From: a virus
Taxonomy: Duplodnaviria; Heunggongvirae; Uroviricota; Caudoviricetes
Strand: one strand, 5' to 3'
Virus record (IMG/VR): IMGVR_UViG_2917886563_000005
DNA length: 38,089 nucleotides
The translations under genes and the position numbers were made by a program. Positions 1,041 to 22,754 of the stretch are shown in pieces. The notes under the pieces are model-generated. The model worked only from the letters and a program-made list of their open reading frames with translations. It did not search any database and was not told the origin of the DNA. Each line of letters starts with the position of its first letter. Within the stretch, counting starts at the first letter, position 1.

Positions 1041-2786
1041 GTGGGGATTTTTTTACTAGGCCGCAAGTTCGAAGGATCAAGCTTACTTTTTGATAAGGGA
1101 CGCTTATTTTTACAGAACAGCGTTGATGGAAATGTCTTCCTTGTAGTTGAGAAAGGAGGAAATCGAGCGTTTCTTCATACTGGTGAAAAATTTATAGATT
1201 TTGTTAGAGTTGGGCACTTGTCACATTTGAAATGCTATCTCTCACGTGAGAGCGACAGACTTTTATACTGCGTTTCATCATTAGGTGATGCTATTGAGAA
1301 GACAGTAACAGCAAACAGAACAAAAGCAAGTGGCTGGGAAACATTTGATATGCTTCCTGCAAAAGACTTAAGCGAATCATCCCTTAATCAAATAGAAATG
1401 CTTAAGGAAATATATTTTAAAAATGATGATTTAACATCTGTTTTCAACAGAATTGTTAGATCAGATTTGATTGACAAAGGAAGAACGATTGAAAAGCTAA
1501 TTGAAATAATGAGCGTCGACGATAAGACATATATCTCTTATCATCTATCTAAAAACATCAGTGAATTAGCAACGCTTTCTGATATTTCAGATGATGCGCT
1601 ATTTAAAGCATTTGTTTCAAACCTAACCAACTACAGCAAAAAAATATCTGTTATAGATGAAAAACTTGATTTTTTATCTAAGCTTTCGAACCAAATTATT
1701 TCTAAAAACAGCTGGATTGAACTAATTCATAATTTAAGAAAAATATCTCCACCAAAACATAAATCATGCATTGTTGCAACATGCAAAAATGAAGGTGTTT
1801 ATCTTATTGAGTGGATAGCTTACCATCTAAGCATTGGGTTTGATGCAATATTTATATATTCTAATGGTAATGATGATGGTTCTGACGAACTACTTAATAA
1901 TCTTCATAATGAAGGAATCATATACTACATAAAAAACATTGTTGGAGATGGTGTTAGTGCACAAAACAAGGCTTATGCTCATGCACTAACAATTAACAAG
2001 GAGGTTCTAAATTATGAATGGAGTCTTTTCATTGATATAGATGAATTTTTTGTTTTAAACGAATACATGTTTTCTTCCATCACTGATTATCTAGACTGGC
2101 AAAACAAAAATGAAACTGACGCAATTGCTTTAAACTGGATGTTTAGCAAACCAGTGGAAAATAGCGACTGGATAAACAATCCAATAACTAAAAGATTGCC
2201 ATATATTAATAAAGAAGCAAGCGCTCATATCAAAACATTTTTTAAGCCTCACAAATTCTCAGGCTCAACCCCTCATTTCCCATTGTGCAATAGCAATTAT
2301 AAGTTCGCATATAGAGACTCTTCAGGTAACATTCATGAAAAGTCCATCACAAAAAATGATTTATCATTTTCTAACAAACCACAAAACTCACACGCTTACA
2401 TTATTCATTACTTCAATAGAAGTATAGCTGAGTTTATTTGGAAATACTCTAGAAACAGAGGTAATCACCCAAATACAAAAAGCGGAAATAACTTTACAGA
2501 ACACTTATTTCAGTTCCTTGGCTTCTTCACATCATCATTAGACTCACCACGGTTCGTGGAGAATGAATCAATTGCTAAAATGACTGACATCATTGATTCA
2601 AAAATTAGCGAAATAGTAGCAAGCGAATCAATACAAATTGCGTATGAGAATGTTAAGAACAGGACAAGAGAGCGTTACGAATTAATCGAACCTTTATTTT
2701 GGGAGTATTTAAAGGGAAACATCAACTCAGAAAAACATAAAGACTCAATTTCAGATTTTATATCTAGATTTAAAGAAAAAGCCTAA
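1041..2786 (+). CDS. Cargo gene: 581-aa protein with N-terminal ~240-aa region of unknown function and C-terminal GT-A-fold glycosyltransferase-like domain; candidate lysogenic-conversion glycosyltransferase
   Basis: Motifs CIVATCKNEGVYLIEWIAYHLSIGFDAIFIYSNGNDDGSDELL and DIDEF look like GT2/GT92-type nucleotide-sugar transferases; visibly AT-rich versus flanks; GTG start at 1041 with GAGGGG 6 nt upstream (start uncertain, internal ATGs exist). Confidence 0.65.
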   Translation: MGIFLLGRKFEGSSLLFDKGRLFLQNSVDGNVFLVVEKGGNRAFLHTGEKFIDFVRVGHLSHLKCYLSRESDRLLYCVSSLGDAIEKTVTANRTKASGWETFDMLPAKDLSESSLNQIEMLKEIYFKNDDLTSVFNRIVRSDLIDKGRTIEKLIEIMSVDDKTYISYHLSKNISELATLSDISDDALFKAFVSNLTNYSKKISVIDEKLDFLSKLSNQIISKNSWIELIHNLRKISPPKHKSCIVATCKNEGVYLIEWIAYHLSIGFDAIFIYSNGNDDGSDELLNNLHNEGIIYYIKNIVGDGVSAQNKAYAHALTINKEVLNYEWSLFIDIDEFFVLNEYMFSSITDYLDWQNKNETDAIALNWMFSKPVENSDWINNPITKRLPYINKEASAHIKTFFKPHKFSGSTPHFPLCNSNYKFAYRDSSGNIHEKSITKNDLSFSNKPQNSHAYIIHYFNRSIAEFIWKYSRNRGNHPNTKSGNNFTEHLFQFLGFFTSSLDSPRFVENESIAKMTDIIDSKISEIVASESIQIAYENVKNRTRERYELIEPLFWEYLKGNINSEKHKDSISDFISRFKEKA

Positions 2787-2796
2787 TCAATTTTCT

Positions 2797-2826
2797 GCGG
2801 AGGTAATCCACCTCCGCTATTTTATA
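2797..2826 (+). terminator. Intrinsic terminator after the glycosyltransferase-like gene, between convergent genes
   Basis: gcggaggt-aatcc-acctccgc (8-bp stem) followed by tattttataat. Confidence 0.5.
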
Positions 2827-2851
2827 ATACATTGTGTGATTTACAATATTT

Positions 2852-5116
2852 TCATTTCGATGAGTTAATTGCCTCAATGATACGCTTCAGGATTTCATTA
2901 TTTCTGCGTTGTAATGCAGCCTCAAGGACTAAGGCCTCTTCATAACGGATCCCATAACGTGAGCCTGCCGGAGTGACCAGAATATCTTCATATTCTGGAT
3001 CTGCCTCTTCTTCATACTCTTCTTCGACTTCTTGAAACTCTGTCTCGATGTACTCTTCTTCTACATCTTCAACTACAGGGACGCTCACGAATGGATTTTG
3101 CGCAAATGGTGAACCATCTTCATTAAGAACAGGTATCATTTCCATTTTTGGAGCCTGATACTCTTCATTCACTACTCGTTTAATCCGTGTTCCGTCTTCC
3201 AGTACCTCATCCTTTAATACCTGACGACTCTCAGTAACCATCACTTGTTTGCTTACAATTCGAGTTTTAGTAACCTGCACAGGAACTGTTGTTATGCGAG
3301 TTTTAGTAACCATTACACCTTCGTTTGTCTGAACCTTAGTATATTGATCATCCCACTCGTCAAAGCAAAAGAATCCAAATCGGTGCACATCAAGCCCATG
3401 ACGTTCAAACGCCTCCTTTGCACGTTGAGCTATTACGCCAAAATGCCAACGAGCTCCGTCTTCTCCTTTTTCTTCTGTTCTGTCAAGATACTGAAATTGA
3501 ACGAAGTCAACCTCTGACCATGCGTCAAGTATTGTATCAGTGATTTCAAGAGGTGCAGTTTTAGCTCGCTCATCTGAAGTAACGGTAAAGGCTGTTTGAG
3601 TGAATCCACCAGACCACACACGACCAGCAGTTCCGACCGTGCTATTACTGTTCTGTGAGTATGGTGTAATAGATGAGTCTACTCTTACAACCCCATCCCC
3701 CTTTGGAGATAGCCTCAAATCAATATCTGTATCGCTTCCAGCAACGCCAACAGCAGGAGCATTAGATGCTGTCTGTGAGCGCATGGCTAGATAATTGGCA
3801 GGAACTGTAGGCCCAGACTCTATGGAAAATATAGGTAACCCAGACGATAATCGTGTAAATACTACGCCATTATCACTAAATAACATTCTGGTTGATCTGG
3901 TTGCATCCTCCAAAACAGAGAGTATTTCAGAAGTTTTCTGATTTGAATTGTTGTACCAAGTCATTGAGTGTCTATTACCAAAAGCAATTGCCACACCTTG
4001 ACCTGTTGATTCTCCGTCGGTTCCTTTAAGGCTATTGCTGCCAAATACGATGCCCTTCAGAAAGCGTGCTGTTTTCCCAGCAGTTTTGTCGTTAGCTATT
4101 ATTCCAATTGCTGCCGATGCAGCATTCAACACTTCTCCAGCTTGGGTTAATTCACCACCTGAGCCTAACCATAATGCGTCAGTCTGACCGTTGGGGAACA
4201 TTGAATTAGGATACAGTTCACGCTCATTCCCCCTGTTTGCTATATCAAGTTCAAGACCGTGACTTGCTCCGATTGTTCCTGCATTTCTTACAGTTGAACC
4301 ATAAAGTGCCCATGCGCTAGACCTAACACCTGATGAATCATCGTTGTAAGCCATCCCGGCTACGGCAAGAGCAGCATTACCCGGTTCACCATCTCCAGTA
4401 TGAGCAGATCCAAAAATTCCTATCCCATCTGGTGGGGCAATCCCAACATTTCTACAGTGTCGCTCTAAATAGAAATAAATATTTCCCCCTAGCCCTGCCA
4501 TCCATGGCACTTGCCTTAACCAATACCCACCAATGAATGTAACATCCATTTCCATTTCCCACGATGTAAGTGGGTCTGAAACAATATCCTGACTTAACAA
4601 ATAAGTGCCAGCAGGAATATAAATTTTGCGCCTTGTCGCATTAGCCGCAAGAAACGCTTCAGTAGAATCAACAACCCCTGTTGGGTCAGCACCTCCGGCA
4701 AAACCACTCCAAGTAACAGGCTTTGCTAATCCTCCGACAAATCCAGCTCCACCAGGCCCCTCCAGTTCAGATCGCAGTTGATCGGGGTCATACTTCAGCA
4801 CATTAGGAAAATAGAACTGCTGCGCACCATATGCATCATATACAGCCATAGAATGGCCTTGCACAGTTACGAACTTGGCAATCTGTCCGTTATATACCGG
4901 GTAACCAGCAGCGTTAATGATGATTGGTTGCGAAACAGGAAAGTGAGAGCCGTCTTCGTTCTCCACATAAACCTGAATCTGGTTTTCAGGATTTACCGGG
5001 TCAGTGTCAATTTTACCGATATAAATTTTGCCATTGGCTACGGCTTTAAAAGAACGCGCCATAGTGAAGAGTTGCGAAGGCATACTCACTACAACATTAG
5101 CTGTAATGTCTGTCAT
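2852..5116 (-). CDS. Tailspike: P22 gp9-like N-terminal head-binding domain, different central receptor-binding domain, C-terminal S74-type intramolecular chaperone and Glu-rich tail
   Basis: N-terminus [11 protein letters not shown]...[11 protein letters not shown]...VLKYDPDQ matches recalled P22 gp9 residues 1-~110; C-terminal SDERAK...WHFGVIAQ is characteristic of the autocleaving chaperone domain. Confidence 0.85.
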
Positions 5117-5183
5117 TTAATTTGCTCCAGATACAAGGAATCGCCGCAGCATTGCCACAGTGATGCATTATTAATCAAACAAA

Positions 5184-5198
5184 GGGACCGCTGTGGTC
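5184..5198. promoter_or_regulatory. Imperfect palindrome in the mnt-tailspike intergenic region; possible Mnt operator
   Basis: gggaccgctgtggtc contains GACC/GGTC half-sites; weak, from memory of P22 Omnt. Confidence 0.2.
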
Positions 5199-5262
5199 TT
5201 ATTGAGGATGCAACCAGCAGATAATAAGATGCCGATCCACTCACAAAAGCGAGGCATCAAGA

Positions 5263-5514
5263 ATGGGAAGAGATGACCCGCAATTTAATCTGCGGCTACC
5301 TTACGAATTAAAGGAAAAACTAAAACAGCGAGCCAAATCCAATGGTCGCTCTCTTAATTCAGAATTAGTTCAGATAGTGACTGATGCTGTATCAAAGCCA
5401 TCCAAAATTTCAGGCTATCGAGACGATGCGGAACGAATCGCTGATGAGCAGTCCGAACTTGTTAAGAAGATGGTGTTTGATACGCTGAAAGATTTGTACA
5501 AAAAACCCACCTGA
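5263..5514 (+). CDS. mnt: Mnt repressor (ribbon-helix-helix), 83 aa
   Basis: Translation MGRDDPQFNLRLPYELKEKLK...KKMVFDTLKDLYKKPT closely matches recalled P22 Mnt; GAGG upstream of ATG. Confidence 0.85.
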   Translation: MGRDDPQFNLRLPYELKEKLKQRAKSNGRSLNSELVQIVTDAVSKPSKISGYRDDAERIADEQSELVKKMVFDTLKDLYKKPT

Positions 5515-5530
5515 TGGTGGGTTCCATTTA
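5498..5530. terminator. Bidirectional intrinsic terminator shared by convergent mnt and lipoprotein genes
   Basis: aacccacc-tgat-ggtgggtt with A-run upstream and T-rich run downstream; stem overlaps the mnt stop codon. Confidence 0.5.
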
Positions 5531-5950
5531 TTAGTCTTGCTTTGTGGACGGTATAAGTGATGCATTTGCCTCTTTTGGCTTCAAGGTATACATTCCACCA
5601 TTAAATGGATCTACAGCAAGCCAACCAATTAACCCACCAAACACAAGGTTTCCACCAATATACCAACCATTAGCATTGGCTTTGATTGGCAAGGTTACTG
5701 GCTCGTACCCATCCTTTTCCATAGTGATCTGATAGCTCTTTTTGCCAAAATAACTACCATCTGACTTGGCAAGAGTTACTCCTTGCGGGGTCTTACCTTG
5801 CGCAACAATCACGCCTGATTCGTCTTTTACCTTAAAGCTCGCACCGGAAGGATTGCTGTTCACTTGCACAAGCTGTGTTTCGTCACCAACAATAGTTGCG
5901 CACCCAGATAACAATATAGCGCCAGCAACGACGCCGATAATCCTCTTCAT
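5531..5950 (-). CDS. Predicted lipoprotein (139 aa), function unknown; candidate superinfection-exclusion factor
   Basis: Signal peptide with lipobox MKRIIGVVAGAILLSGC; sits where P22 carries sieA/immI genes. Confidence 0.65.
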   Translation of the reverse strand: MKRIIGVVAGAILLSGCATIVGDETQLVQVNSNPSGASFKVKDESGVIVAQGKTPQGVTLAKSDGSYFGKKSYQITMEKDGYEPVTLPIKANANGWYIGGNLVFGGLIGWLAVDPFNGGMYTLKPKEANASLIPSTKQD

Positions 5951-6471
5951 ATTACTTTCCGTTTTGTTAGAATCAGAAAGATCTTAATAATAAAAAGTAT
6001 TTTCGTGAAGATATTGTCGATTGAGTTAATAACTCATTTACACCCAACAGTGCCATGATGGCAAAGATAAGGAGAGTTAATCATATGAAAAAATCACTGT
6101 TAATTATCCCGCTTCTGCTGGCAGGGTGTGCAAAGGTTAGCGACTATCAGGCAAGTTGCGAACAACGCTATCCAAAGCTTAGCGATATGGCTAATTGCCT
6201 TGATGCTAGCGTGAAGAACGACTCACGCATGGCATCAGCACCAACACCTAAGTTATATGTCCTTGCTGCGAAGATGCTCGGGCAAGGTGTCGATGATGGC
6301 AAGATAAGTGACGCGCAGGCAAGGCTTGAGCTTCAGAATCTTTATGTTCAATTACAAAGCCAAGAACAAGCCCAACAAATAGCGCAAAGCCAAGCATTCC
6401 AGCAGGCTTTATTGGAGTGCCCCCAAGCCCGTAGACAAATCTGCCCTATAGTTTGAGCATAGGAGGAGTCT

Positions 6472-6756
6472 ATGGGCACACCACGATTTACCCCAGAGTT
6501 TAAGGAGGAAGCTGTCCGTCAGGTTACTGAACGGGGCTATTCCGTTGCCGATGTTTCTGAACGCCTCGGCGTATCGGCTCACAGCCTTTATAAGTGGGTC
6601 CGGTCAGTCAGACCGGATAACAGCGAGCATCAGGCGCAGGATTTACTGGATGCGCGGACGGAGATTCTCAGGCTTAAAGCGCAGCTTAAACGTACTGAGG
6701 AAGAACGGGATATTCTGAAAAAGGCAGCGCGGTACTTTGCAAGGGAGCCCGACTGA
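6472..6756 (+). CDS. IS3-family transposase OrfA (HTH, leucine zipper), 94 aa
   Basis: MGTPRFTPEFKEEAVRQV...LKKAARYFA is typical of IS3-family OrfA; AGGAGG RBS. Confidence 0.85.
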   Translation: MGTPRFTPEFKEEAVRQVTERGYSVADVSERLGVSAHSLYKWVRSVRPDNSEHQAQDLLDARTEILRLKAQLKRTEEERDILKKAARYFAREPD

Positions 6757-7607
6757 AGTACCGCTTCATCAACGATCACCGTGAAATCTGGTCGATCGTA
6801 ACAATGTGTCGGGTTCTGAAGGTCGCCCGTGCGGGATTTTACGTCTGGCTTCATCGCCCTGTTTCTGCCGGAGAAAAGGATAATCAGCGGTTGCTGGAGC
6901 TCATCCGCGATGCTTATGCACTGAGCGGCGGAGTCTACGGTTATCGCAGGGTTCACGGCGATCTTCGTGAAATCGGTGAAGTATGCAGCAGAAACCGTGT
7001 TGCCAGAATCATGAAGCGGAACAGGATACAGGCCGTACATGGCTATAAGGTCCCGCGTGGCGTCAGGGGAAGGCCGTCACTGATAGCTCCTAATCGCGTA
7101 CAGCGGGAATTTACGGTGGTAAAACCCAACCAGGTGTGGGTAACTGATATTACCTACATCCGCACCTGGCAGGGTTGGCTGTATCTGGCGGTGGTTATCG
7201 ATCTTTTTGCCCGTAATGTGGTGGGCTGGTCGATGAAACCAACGCTGTCGCGCGAGCTGGCACTGGATGCGCTGCTGATGGCAGTCTGGCGGCGTAAGCC
7301 TGCAGAAAACGTCATAGTGCACAGCGATCAGGGCAGTCAGTATGGCAGTGATGACTGGCAGCGGTTCTGCAGGGCCAACAATCTGGCGCCGAGCATGAGC
7401 CGTCGTGGCAACTGCTGGGATAATGCGGTGGCAGAATCGTTCTTCAGTTCACTGAAAAAAGAGCGCATCAGAAAGCGGATATATAAAACCCGGGACATGG
7501 CCCGGGCGGATATCTTCGATTACATTGAAGTGTTCTACAACCGGACCCGACGCCACAGTCATCTGGGTGGCGTCAGCCCGGAGGCCTTCGAAAAGGCCTC
7601 ACCGTGA
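6717..7607 (+). CDS. IS3-family transposase OrfB (DDE catalytic domain), made as an OrfAB fusion by -1 frameshift near GAAAAAG (6717..6723); first ATG of the OrfB frame is at 6804
   Basis: OrfB frame is open from the slippery run to 7607; conserved ...ITYIRTWQGWLYLAVVIDLF...HSDQGSQY...DNA... DDE-type motifs; stop lies within the right inverted repeat. Confidence 0.8.
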   Translation, partial: EKGSAVLCKGARLKYRFINDHREIWSIVTMCRVLKVARAGFYVWLHRPVSAGEKDNQRLLELIRDAYALSGGVYGYRRVHGDLREIGEVCSRNRVARIMKRNRIQAVHGYKVPRGVRGRPSLIAPNRVQREFTVVKPNQVWVTDITYIRTWQGWLYLAVVIDLFARNVVGWSMKPTLSRELALDALLMAVWRRKPAENVIVHSDQGSQYGSDDWQRFCRANNLAPSMSRRGNCWDNAVAESFFSSLKKERIRKRIYKTRDMARADIFDYIEVFYNRTRRHSHLGGVSPEAFEKASP

Positions 7608-7894
7608 GGACAGAAACTGTCTACCGGAATGTGGTCACTCCATTATTGAATTATCAGGCTGTAAACACAATGCAAGCGATCGAGCAAAAAGCGAGACAGC
7701 CTGTTATAACTCAACCCTATCCAACACGAGTTGACACTTACACAAACTGCAATTCAGGGTTTGGAAATACAGTCACATGCAACAGTAGCAGTAACATCAG
7801 ATAACAATCAGCAAAGGTATCGCCTATGCAGAGGGATACGATAAACCTCGCGTTCTACATATTTGATTTTTGCACGTTCCTGGTGTTTGAAAAG

Positions 7895-9892
7895 CTATTC
7901 TGACAACGCATCAGACTTAACACCCTGCGTCATAGCGTTAATAGCCTTTTGTGCCTGCTTCATGGCTTTCTCAAACGCTGTTGATCCGCGTGGGGTATTT
8001 GCCATTCGTAGCATTGCATTTCTGAATGGCTCACTCTCATAGGCGCGAGCAAGAAGGCCGTAGCTTACTGCTGCGCCAGTTGTCGCCGGGTTCATTGCCG
8101 TCCCATATCCGATAATGAACGGGATGGTTTGCTGCCCTGTTGGTGTTGTTACTGCCGCTTTTGCAGCCTGCTGCGTGGATTGCAGGTAGTTTTTCAATCC
8201 CCTCAGGTAAGCAGCATCCTGCCCCTTAAATGTGATACCCGTTTGGTTTTGCAGGATGTTAAGCTGTCGAAGGAACTGGTCAGGGGATCCACCTGATTTC
8301 TCTATCGCCTTTCCAATGATGCCATTGCGCATTTGCGCTCTTCCAACGCGACCAACTGAGTTATACAGCGTCTTAATTTCCGATTTGTTCTTGCTGAATA
8401 GCATGTTATTCACAACTTCCGGCGTCAGGTCGCCTTTCATGAGAATATTCTTCAGCCTGGTATTCTTTAGTTTCGCCGCTTCGTCAGCGTAGACGGCATT
8501 GGCCTGCTGATATTTACGAAGAGTATCATTGCCAAGATTCTGACCAATGGCACCATTGATATCGTCGGTCATCGCCTTGTAAACGCGCTGTATGGCGGCA
8601 TCGGAACGGTTTGGTAACACTGGTCGCTCACCCTTCACGTCCATTCTGAACTGGCTGCGCAGATCGCTTAATTGCTTCAAATCCAGATTTACCGGACCAT
8701 CAGGACCAGCATTGCGAATAAGCTCATCACGATAGGATTGAAGTTTTGAAATCGTCTCGTTATCAGCGACCTTACCAAGCTTCTGCAGGTTAGATATCTC
8801 AGTATCAATCTGCTGAATTGCTCGCACAGGCTGAATGTTGACTCCCGCCATTGCATTCTGAACCTGTTCAAGTCGATTACCTGCAGCACGACGAATTCCT
8901 GATGTTTTCGCTTTAAGGCTTTCAATAACAACAGCTGGATCATACTCACCGAATTTATCAGCAAATCTCTGCACCAACTGGCTTCTCGCTTCCTGTTGCG
9001 TTGCTCTCATTCCGCTTGTGCCAGCCAGAGGGATATTTTCTGCTGTAGTCTGCGCCATTTTTCCGACGCGGGAAGTAGGTTGTAACAGGTCTGTGGTGTG
9101 CAGAGGCACTCCTTCACGCTCTGCAAACCTGATAGCCTGTTGCGCTTCTGGCGCTATCGCACCACGAACTCCACGATAAGCAGCACCTAATCCACGTCCG
9201 GCAGCGTTAATAGCTCCGCCAGCCAGAACGCCAACGCCTAAGTCGGTGGCTAGTGCTTCCGCATCATCTTTCACACTGTTTGCAGCAAGTGATCCAACTG
9301 CGTTTTCAGCGAGAAGGCGAGTTGCACCCTGAGCAATTCGACCAGCAAGTGTTGGTGCCTGTGTTGCCGCTCTCTCAACGCCGGCAGGAGTGAGGTAAGG
9401 CAATGCTTCAGCAAATACCCTGCCCTCTGTCGTTTGTGGAGTCAGCGCACCTTGCTGAAGGCCAAAGTCCTGCTCTAATCCATGCGTTGTTACTCGTGGC
9501 GCTGGTTGATATGTTCCATCGCCAATGCCGAGTTTACCGCCAGCCCATGCAGCCGCGCTTGTTACAGCATCGGCAACCGATGCAGGTATGTTTGCCACGT
9601 TCACGCCAGCCTGCACCAGTCCGCGACCAGTCTCTTTTACTGCTTCGCCAAGATCAGACATAAATCCACTTTGCTGTGGTTGTTGCTGTGCTACTGGTTG
9701 CTGTGTCTCCACTGGCTGCACAGATGGCAATGGATAGGCAGCATAGAAAGCTTGCTTAGCCTGCTCTGCATTTTCTCCGGCTTGCGGGGCCACGACTTCA
9801 TTGAAGTATTGCTCCTGAGCCTGCGCTTTTTGTTCTGGTGCTAACGCCTGATACTGTGGAGAGGCGATAACATCTTTCCATGCTTTAGCCAT
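7895..9892 (-). CDS. P22 gp16-like ejection (E) protein
   Basis: Position and size (665 aa) in the conserved P22 order 4-10-26-14-7-20-16; Ala/Gly/Gln-rich. Confidence 0.7.
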   Translation of the reverse strand: MAKAWKDVIASPQYQALAPEQKAQAQEQYFNEVVAPQAGENAEQAKQAFYAAYPLPSVQPVETQQPVAQQQPQQSGFMSDLGEAVKETGRGLVQAGVNVANIPASVADAVTSAAAWAGGKLGIGDGTYQPAPRVTTHGLEQDFGLQQGALTPQTTEGRVFAEALPYLTPAGVERAATQAPTLAGRIAQGATRLLAENAVGSLAANSVKDDAEALATDLGVGVLAGGAINAAGRGLGAAYRGVRGAIAPEAQQAIRFAEREGVPLHTTDLLQPTSRVGKMAQTTAENIPLAGTSGMRATQQEARSQLVQRFADKFGEYDPAVVIESLKAKTSGIRRAAGNRLEQVQNAMAGVNIQPVRAIQQIDTEISNLQKLGKVADNETISKLQSYRDELIRNAGPDGPVNLDLKQLSDLRSQFRMDVKGERPVLPNRSDAAIQRVYKAMTDDINGAIGQNLGNDTLRKYQQANAVYADEAAKLKNTRLKNILMKGDLTPEVVNNMLFSKNKSEIKTLYNSVGRVGRAQMRNGIIGKAIEKSGGSPDQFLRQLNILQNQTGITFKGQDAAYLRGLKNYLQSTQQAAKAAVTTPTGQQTIPFIIGYGTAMNPATTGAAVSYGLLARAYESEPFRNAMLRMANTPRGSTAFEKAMKQAQKAINAMTQGVKSDALSE

Positions 9893-22232: not shown

Positions 22233-22754
22233 TCAGCACGCGATATCGAGAGTCAACTGCAGTTGCTCGCGCCAGTACTCAACATTTGCTTCAATAACCG
22301 GCTTATCCCATCGCCAGCGAGCCATCTCTCTTGCCCCATTGCTGGCTTTTGATTTCCGGTCATCGCGAATGCGACATGCTTGCTCATATTTCTGCTGCTC
22401 AGTCAGTTCACCGCGAAGCAGACTATCAATGTGCAGGTCGCACCACACAGCAAAACGAGCATCACACCAACGGGCAAATGCAACTGAAAGTTTTGGATGT
22501 AGCCACGTACCACCACCCCTGTCCTTTCGTGCCTTGCTGGTTTTTACATACCTCGATTGTGAGGGATGTAAAATTTGAGATTCTTTCCCGGTCAACGCTT
22601 CGTCTAAAGCACGAACGTATTCAAGCGTTTCTGCCAAACGCATCCAGTTATCAATGCGTTTCCCAAATCTCTCAGCAACACCTGTGACGTTGATCCAACC
22701 ATCAGTGTTGAAACTGACAACTTCGCCTTTGTAATTAAGTGGCACGATATTCAT
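22233..22754 (-). CDS. KilA-N domain protein, 173 aa
   Basis: ...GGGTWLHPKLSVAFARWCDARFAVWCDLHI... is the KilA-N signature region. Confidence 0.7.
   Translation of the reverse strand: MNIVPLNYKGEVVSFNTDGWINVTGVAERFGKRIDNWMRLAETLEYVRALDEALTGKESQILHPSQSRYVKTSKARKDRGGGTWLHPKLSVAFARWCDARFAVWCDLHIDSLLRGELTEQQKYEQACRIRDDRKSKASNGAREMARWRWDKPVIEANVEYWREQLQLTLDIAC

Follow-up and report, generated by a model that had tools for sequence, protein, structure and literature searches.

Gene content of the mnt locus

The window (the whole stretch of 38,089 nucleotides that was analysed) is most of a P22-like (Lederbergvirus-type) E. coli prophage, and it adjoins a host gene of the PEBP/YbhB family. Inside the late operon, between the last ejection-protein gene (gp16-like, 7895..9892, − strand) and the tailspike gene (2852..5116, − strand), lies an intact mnt gene (5263..5514, + strand) with a GAGG Shine-Dalgarno sequence at 5251..5254. 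The gene order around mnt is identical in phages Gally, ST160, and SPN9CC. The original prediction described a lone, intact mnt that is separated by 146 bp (5117..5262) from the divergent tailspike gene, and both the coordinates and the orphan status are correct.

The product of mnt is an 83-amino-acid ribbon-helix-helix repressor with a C-terminal tetramerisation helix, as judged from Pfam, PDB, and sequence identity. The N-terminal ribbon-helix-helix (Arc-like) domain covers residues 3-50 (Pfam Arc, PF03869, 2.8e-22), and the C-terminal coiled-coil tetramerisation domain covers residues 53-80 (Pfam Repressor_Mnt, PF11423, 2.2e-18). The matches in PDB are 1MNT (2.8e-34) and, for the tetramerisation domain, 1QEY (3.1e-12, with 28/31 residues identical). 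The protein is 76% identical to P22 Mnt and 100% identical to the Mnt of phage Gally. Its N-terminus is GRDDPQFNLRLP, with a glutamine at the site of His6 of P22 Mnt. (PHROG 795 and the RefSeq records NC_014900, NC_011802, and NC_002371 label Mnt as a "partition protein ATPase." This is an annotation error that has spread via the shared ribbon-helix-helix fold.)

The tailspike combines a P22-type head-binding domain (Pfam Head_binding, 1.4e-66) with a different receptor-binding body and an S74 intramolecular chaperone domain (Peptidase_S74, 1.3e-14), and its similarity to the Gally tailspike stops after the N-terminal head-binding domain. The chaperone domain is in mid-protein (residues 514-575), and the C-terminal extension beyond it is long and very acidic. 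An island of 30-35% GC, located between the tailspike and host PEBP genes, encodes a 581-amino-acid GT2/GT92-like glycosyltransferase (1041..2786) that has no PHROG match and is probably a lysogenic-conversion (surface polysaccharide) moron that replaces gtrABC.

On its other side, mnt converges with a lipoprotein gene, and a hairpin terminator lies between the two (5504..5523; terminator scan; RNA fold of −16.8 kcal/mol, z = −3.1). The epsilon34 record has a terminator annotated at the matching position. As a U-run follows the hairpin on the − strand, it should halt non-antiterminated transcripts before they run antisense to mnt and into the tailspike gene. Two further candidate features were rejected: a terminator-like hairpin at 5149..5166, which lacks a proper T-run on both strands, and a 43-amino-acid ORF that spans the intergenic region (5113..5244, − strand) and is spurious, its GTG start being lost in ST160-type loci (GTA there). 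An IS3-family element (6415..7642, about 1.23 kb) is inserted relative to Gally, 0.9 kb from mnt. It carries OrfA (6472..6756, HTH_Tnp_1) and OrfB (6804..7607, rve integrase core), and it truncates a homologue of GALLYPH_13 (6055..6456, phrog_6067, 111/161 profile positions matched).

The window lacks arc and ant

The statement that no arc or ant homologue is present holds across the window: tblastn with Arc and Ant of P22 and epsilon34 matched mnt alone, and none of the 30 ORFs searched with Pfam (early, nin, and lysis genes) had an Ant, Rha, or Bro domain. Thus no arc/ant pair was found elsewhere in the prophage, insofar as it lies in the window. (The Pfam scans did find a KilA-N domain protein of 173 amino acids, 22233..22754, between the lysis genes and the small terminase gene. 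It has no operator nearby, and it may be a truncated Rha/KilA-type regulator, as it spans the first 173/273 positions of phrog_129.) The sar-encoding DNA and the ant terminator are also missing from the cassette. The window does not hold a complete immI region, that is, ant under Pant together with arc, the Arc operator, and sar.

The intergenic region retains the P22 mnt operator position

We aligned the intergenic regions of the window, P22, epsilon34, Gally, vB_EcoP-720R6, and ST160, all with mnt at the left. In P22, the sequence TTGACA-17-TATATT CTCAATA GGTCCAC-G-GTGGACC corresponds to Pant, followed by the annotated mnt operator. The window has TCGGCA-17-TGCATC CTCAATA AGACCAC-A-GCGGTCC, with the dyad placed exactly at the position of P22 Omnt, after the conserved CTCAATA. 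So, the "weak GACC/GGTC palindrome" that had been noticed between the genes is, by position, a homologue of the mnt operator of P22 and not a chance feature. This operator homologue extends over 5184..5200 (13-bp core 5186..5198, centre 5192) and reads, on the + strand, GGGACCGC-T-GTGGTCTT, where the family consensus is AAGACCAC-N-GTGGTCTT. The palindrome looks weak because the copy in the window carries two substitutions relative to the consensus AGACCAC-N-GTGGTCT (GGACCGC in place of AGACCAC), and these deviations may weaken binding. The core palindrome, GACCGCTGTGGTC, is present in a single copy, and there is no second operator in the 38-kb window even if 3 mismatches are allowed.

The dyad lies just upstream of the −35 element of a putative Pmnt, and its half-site sequence differs from that of P22. 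We assign Pmnt to 5202..5230 (+ strand; −35 TTGAGG at 5202..5207, 17-bp spacer, −10 TAAGAT at 5225..5230) from positional homology, as the annotated Pmnt of P22 (TTGAGA-17-TATCAT) has the same position and spacing. In a loose promoter scan, this was the best sigma-70-like candidate in the direction of mnt, but it was too weak for a stricter scan. On the opposite strand, the alignment and the loose scan identify a relic of Pant (5207..5235, − strand; TCGGCA at 5235..5230, 17 bp, TGCATC at 5212..5207). It occupies the site of TTGACA-17-TATATT in P22, and its −10 hexamer has lost A2 and T6. Between the two relic hexamers, the alignment shows nothing that resembles Oarc.

Next to the tailspike gene, the alignment shows a conserved gene 9 leader with a GGAG ribosome-binding site (5117..5158, − strand). 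The window and P22 share this leader, which in P22 is located after the ant terminator, and the CUS-3 annotation marks its counterpart as a boundary sequence. The dyad is about 25 bp from the leader, and the operator is 67 bp upstream of the tailspike ATG. In the alignment, the layout is the P22 immI order (mnt, Pmnt-Pant, Omnt, arc-sar-ant-terminator, gene 9) with the middle missing. The alignment establishes the anatomy of the cassette and its positional homology to Omnt and Pmnt of P22.

A separate class of Mnt and operator that is always orphan in P22-like genomes

Using Mnt as the query, we fetched 80 loci from IMG/VR. In 69 of these, Mnt starts with MGRDDPQFNLRLP, and all 69 are orphan and adjoin a tailspike gene, so the related prophages also lack arc and ant at this site. 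The tailspike start is 135-148 bp away in most of these loci and about 425 bp away in ten. In this orphan class, the N-terminus RDDPQFNLR goes with the dyad GACCAC-N-GTGGTC, while the P22 class has RDDPHFNFR with GTCCAC-N-GTGGAC. Loci with MARDDPHFNFRMP have GTCCAC-N-GTGGAC plus arc and ant. The two classes of Mnt and operator were never mixed among all of the loci fetched (some contigs were fetched twice). By its N-terminus and its dyad, the Mnt of the window belongs to a separate specificity class, and in P22-like genomes the RDDPQFNLR class is always orphan.

We compared 32 distinct sequences from upstream of orphan-class mnt genes. The 6+6 bases of the half-sites hardly vary, while the centre takes any base (11 C, 9 A, 4 G, and 8 T). 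The mosaic joint is at the distal edge of the dyad, and conservation stops there. SPN9CC keeps the N-terminal domain and the dyad despite a different C-terminal third of the protein, and in Bp96115 and GE_vB_TR the first 211 of 340 query bases match at 80%. Of 5,426 complete E. coli genomes, 186 carry the cassette.

We rejected a simple code in which residue 6 sets the specificity, as phage Emek (ARNDPQFNVR, Gln6) pairs with TAGTAC-G-GTACTA. Two other arrangements turned up among the loci. The fetched CUS-3 locus (at 2720..3249 of that locus) and four similar loci have two tandem mnt paralogues, one of them Arc-like and starting with MSDRKYKNPQVNLRLP; ant is present, arc is absent, and the 100 bp upstream of the His6-type copy of mnt contain neither a GTCCAC nor a GACCAC dyad. 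Also, four alphaproteobacterial contigs (Mesorhizobium, Lichenihabitans, Aquabacter) encode distant Mnt-like repressors (ARDDPHFRLR) with upstream dyads of the form GACGCAC-NN-TGCGTCA. Two copies of this dyad are visible in 3 of the 4 loci and one in Aquabacter. These contigs suggest that the N-terminal motif of Mnt is widespread and is used with other half-sites.

Cognate ant modules in ES18-like phages

Locus classification and a targeted scan identified six metagenomic contigs of ES18-like siphoviruses in IMG/VR that combine Pant, the cognate operator, an arc-like gene, and ant. In these modules, a strong Pant (TTGACA-17-CATCAT) is followed by AAGACCAC-G-GTGGTCT, and the product of ant is 54% identical to P22 Ant. 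The modules are located among siphovirus tail genes, in DNA that is about 82% identical to the Salmonella phages S107, SPN3UB, and ES18. They adjoin genes for Mnt-like repressors that start with MARDDPQFNLRM and have three unrelated C-terminal domains. As proteins with three unrelated C-terminal domains share the N-terminus and the dyad, they give independent support for the pairing of protein and operator. (A rule that the GACCAC class never pairs with arc was discarded. It came from a scan for the dyad followed by ATGAARGGNATG, with 0 matches versus 101 for the P22-type control, but the arc-like genes start with ATGAAAGGTGCA.) No cognate ant module of the GACCAC type was found in the records of cultured phages or in the 5,426 complete E. 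coli genomes. A similar mnt-arc stretch is found in 81 of the complete E. coli genomes, and the two that were examined are full modules of the His6/GGTCCAC type.

Selection on the orphan mnt

The mnt of the window differs from the orphan mnt of Salmonella phage ST160 with dS of 0.54 and dN of 0.048 (dN/dS of 0.09), and across comparisons of E. coli and Salmonella orphan mnt genes, dN/dS is 0.07-0.10 at dS of about 0.5. Relative to P22 mnt, dS is about 1.5. An identical Mnt protein is encoded by ten DNA alleles, and the dyad and the promoter of the orphan class are conserved in both the E. coli and the Salmonella lineages. By these comparisons, the orphan Mnt protein and its dyad are under purifying selection. 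Together, these values imply that the orphan state is old and has been maintained.

In about 10 related prophages, an AT-rich insert of about 280 bp (for example, 2150..2450 of locus L024) displaces the tailspike gene. The insert starts after the old tailspike ATG and four codons, and it has a good promoter of its own (TTGATC-17-TAAAAT). (An in-frame upstream ORF in the insert, MNRRLFFKTLASL, looks like a twin-arginine signal peptide and continues into the N-terminus of the new tailspike.) The mnt genes of these loci carry changes that include G28C, R29C, P13S/L, and R53*. The ratio of synonymous to non-synonymous differences is 31/19 in the insert loci, versus 105/7 in the class that is directly adjacent to the tailspike gene. 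Private non-synonymous changes are present in 6/10 insert alleles and 2/29 adjacent alleles (P = 0.0014, Fisher's test, ignoring kinship); with one shared lineage collapsed, P = 0.004, and about 9 lineages are behind the contrast. The lipoprotein gene next to mnt is 100% identical in two of the insert loci. The damage to mnt in the insert loci suggests, with small numbers and with kinship ignored, that the selected role of Mnt depends on an operator that abuts the tailspike leader.

Transcription of mnt and the tailspike gene

The original prediction proposed that Mnt might have been re-wired onto a tailspike promoter. When 4900..6100 was scanned strictly for promoters, the intergenic region gave no match. 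Besides the homologue of Pmnt, the loose scan gave one poor candidate that is directed at the tailspike gene, ACCACA-19-AATAAT, which overlaps the operator. This candidate occurs in the window only and is not conserved in ST160-type loci.

Expression data are available for Gally, whose Mnt is identical. In macrophages, mnt is the most strongly induced Gally gene: its RNA rises 40-fold, and the tailspike RNA rises about 21-fold (log2 fold change of 4.42; PMC9928086). Three neighbouring genes also rise, but the upstream ejection-protein genes do not (PMC9928086). In contrast, in stationary-phase LB cultures of Gally lysogens, the mnt RNA is at background (PMC9928086). Deletion of mnt from Gally did not change survival in macrophages, which was the sole assay done (PMC9928086).

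Explanations for an mnt without ant

The most defensible account is that the locus is an autonomous, selected cassette of mnt, Pmnt, and operator, with a distinct specificity class. On sequence evidence, it is the mnt-only form of the immI region of the P22 family (the "ant moron"), with mnt, a putative Pmnt, and a cognate dyad operator. In the evolutionary path that we propose, loss of Pant, the Arc operator, arc, sar, ant, and the ant terminator would have left the operator abutting the tailspike leader, and a Mnt tetramer is predicted to bind at 5184..5200. As there is no ant to control, a local effect of Mnt would be limited to RNA polymerase that crosses the operator boundary. Such polymerase could come from residual initiation at the Pant relic or from read-through toward the tailspike gene, and the overlapping Pmnt could be affected as well. 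Mnt would then act before gene 9 as a local gate or insulator, not as an antirepressor switch.

We tentatively favour this local gate on transcription that enters the tailspike gene, while considering it somewhat short of probable. It fits the ancestral positions of the operator and Pmnt, the adjacency to the tailspike gene in 69/69 orphan loci from IMG/VR, and the nearly invariant half-sites, with conservation that stops exactly at the distal one. The dN/dS of 0.07-0.10, the identical protein from ten alleles, and the damage to mnt where an insert separates the operator from the tailspike gene all point the same way, and the ant moron region has been seen as modulating late transcription into the tailspike gene (PMC2629481). 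However, there is no convincing promoter that faces the tailspike gene, the hexamers of Pant are degraded, the contrast in relaxed selection represents about 9 lineages with kinship ignored, and binding by this class of Mnt is a prediction. The RNA data are also awkward for a gate, as mnt and tailspike RNAs in Gally were induced together in macrophages instead of being anti-correlated, mnt RNA was at background in LB, and the deletion had no phenotype in macrophage survival (PMC9928086). Some of these observations bear on the stronger claim that Mnt is a classical repressor of a genuine tailspike promoter and keeps the tailspike off in the lysogen. The operator is indeed 67 bp upstream of the tailspike ATG, the weak ACCACA-19-AATAAT of the window does overlap it, and transcription of the Gally tailspike without the upstream ejection-protein genes implies some local or read-through source (PMC9928086). 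But that candidate is poor and not conserved in ST160-type loci, the strict scan was empty, and no conserved sigma-70-type promoter faces the tailspike gene. The layout is the ancestral order minus arc-ant, so that loss explains it without any new connection, and the mnt and tailspike RNAs of Gally rise together (PMC9928086). We consider the re-wiring very unlikely. For the local gate, too, the precedent in P22 is discouraging: Vershon and colleagues reportedly found, in 1987, that Pmnt is not under the direct control of an operator located here.

Alternatively, Mnt could act in trans, with the prophage Mnt silencing the Pant of incoming or co-resident phages that have ant behind the same operator. 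The prophage's own C2 repressor would be protected from inactivation, and the cis operator would be secondary. It is established that the Mnt of a P22 prophage represses the ant of a superinfecting phage (PMC11016777), the window encodes an S24-type C2-like repressor (by Pfam scan), and the six ES18-like contigs have Pant-arc-ant behind an identical dyad. Strong purifying selection on the orphan mnt and its presence in 186/5,426 E. coli genomes are also as expected. But the cognate targets are rare, with 6 metagenomic contigs versus more than 60 orphan loci. None was found among cultured phages or complete E. coli genomes, and in Gally lysogens grown in LB, the level of mnt RNA is close to background (PMC9928086). 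Also, trans action accounts neither for the conservation of the cis dyad nor for the decay of mnt upon uncoupling from the tailspike gene. We view trans immunity as possible but rather unlikely, and we are a little more doubtful of its specific form, in which orphan Mnt is a prophage defence, a stand-alone "anti-antirepressor" against the ant of unrelated ES18-like temperate phages that share the operator. If this were true, the specificity classes of Mnt and operator would amount to a second, cross-family system of immunity groups. That the gene is a non-functional remnant of a degrading immI region, a possibility that was raised for phage L (bioRxiv 10.1101/2020.10.05.325894), strikes us as very unlikely. 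The two deviations in the operator of the window, R53* in some alleles, the IS element 0.9 kb away, and the lack of a macrophage-survival phenotype for the Gally deletion (PMC9928086) could all be read as decay. Yet dN/dS is about 0.09 at dS of about 0.5, the protein is identical across ten DNA alleles, and the dyad and promoter are kept in E. coli and Salmonella lineages. Furthermore, the N-terminal domain and operator persist in SPN9CC with a swapped C-terminal domain, the first 211/340 query bases still match Bp96115 and GE_vB_TR at 80%, and the split from the P22-type mnt is old (dS of about 1.5). Finally, Mnt could have been co-opted to control host or other prophage genes under stress or intracellular conditions, as the 40-fold induction of mnt, the strongest of any Gally gene in macrophages, might suggest (PMC9928086). 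This also seems very unlikely, because the 38-kb window has no second operator and because, among the matches listed for IMG/VR (at least 120 exact operator matches), 73 do not adjoin an mnt homologue, and most of these are in unrelated contexts, with none before a candidate regulon.

Relationship to known systems

The role of Mnt in the absence of ant has been a standing question since at least 2008, and our analysis narrows it. The orphan cassette is an old lineage that has been under selection and has an operator specificity of its own, not recent debris, and its cognate ant modules are in another phage family. Two concrete hypotheses stand out: Mnt could gate the transcription of the tailspike gene in cis, or it could give immunity in trans to the antirepressors of other phages. 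The variable region was named the "ant moron" by Villafane et al. 2008 (PMC2629481). Ant morons with mnt only have been published for ST64T, ST104, and L (PMC2629481; bioRxiv 10.1101/2020.10.05.325894), and the cassette is annotated in the records of ST160, SE1, SPN9CC, vB_EcoP-720R6, and Gally. Thus, the mnt-only arrangement is already known, and the window confirms a known mosaic variant. We add, as increments, the class of operator and the cognate modules that ES18-like phages carry.

The window shares with the mnt-only phages (ST64T, ST104, L, ST160, SE1, SPN9CC, and the E. coli phages Gally and vB_EcoP-720R6) the location between the ejection-protein and tailspike genes, a divergent mnt with a gap of 135-148 bp, the lack of arc, sar, and ant, and the N-terminal sequence and dyad. 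It differs from them in its operator (GGACCGC instead of AGACCAC), in the body of its tailspike, and in having an IS3-family element that interrupts the neighbouring moron gene. With the immI region of P22 and epsilon34, it shares a homologous Mnt (76%) of the same ribbon-helix-helix and tetramerisation architecture, the location in the late operon, and the positions of both Pmnt and the dyad that follows CTCAATA. Unlike that region, it lacks Pant, the Arc operator, arc, sar, ant, and the ant terminator, and it has a half-site of AGACCAC instead of GGTCCAC and a recognition strand of PQFNLR instead of PHFNFR.

The modules of the ES18-like contigs resemble the orphan class in the dyad AAGACCAC-G-GTGGTCT, the N-terminus RDDPQFNLR, and the geometry of promoter and operator. 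In contrast to the window, they have a strong Pant, an arc-like gene, and ant, in a setting of siphovirus tail genes, and their Mnt-like proteins have unrelated, longer C-terminal domains. A further likeness is to P22 Arc, in which PQFNLRWP matches the PQFNLR(L)P of the Mnt recognition strand in the window, as if the strand of Arc had been grafted naturally on the scaffold of Mnt. However, the N-terminal arm (GRDDP) is like that of Mnt and not Arc, and the predicted operator is a 6-N-6 dyad of the Mnt type and not the 21-bp Arc operator. N-terminal residues are known to determine the specificity of both Arc and Mnt (cited in PMC3413123). The natural Arc-like recognition strand of the window's Mnt can be compared with the Arc/Mnt hybrid repressors of Knight and Sauer, and the two classes of Mnt provide a natural pair of protein and operator variants for studies of ribbon-helix-helix recognition.
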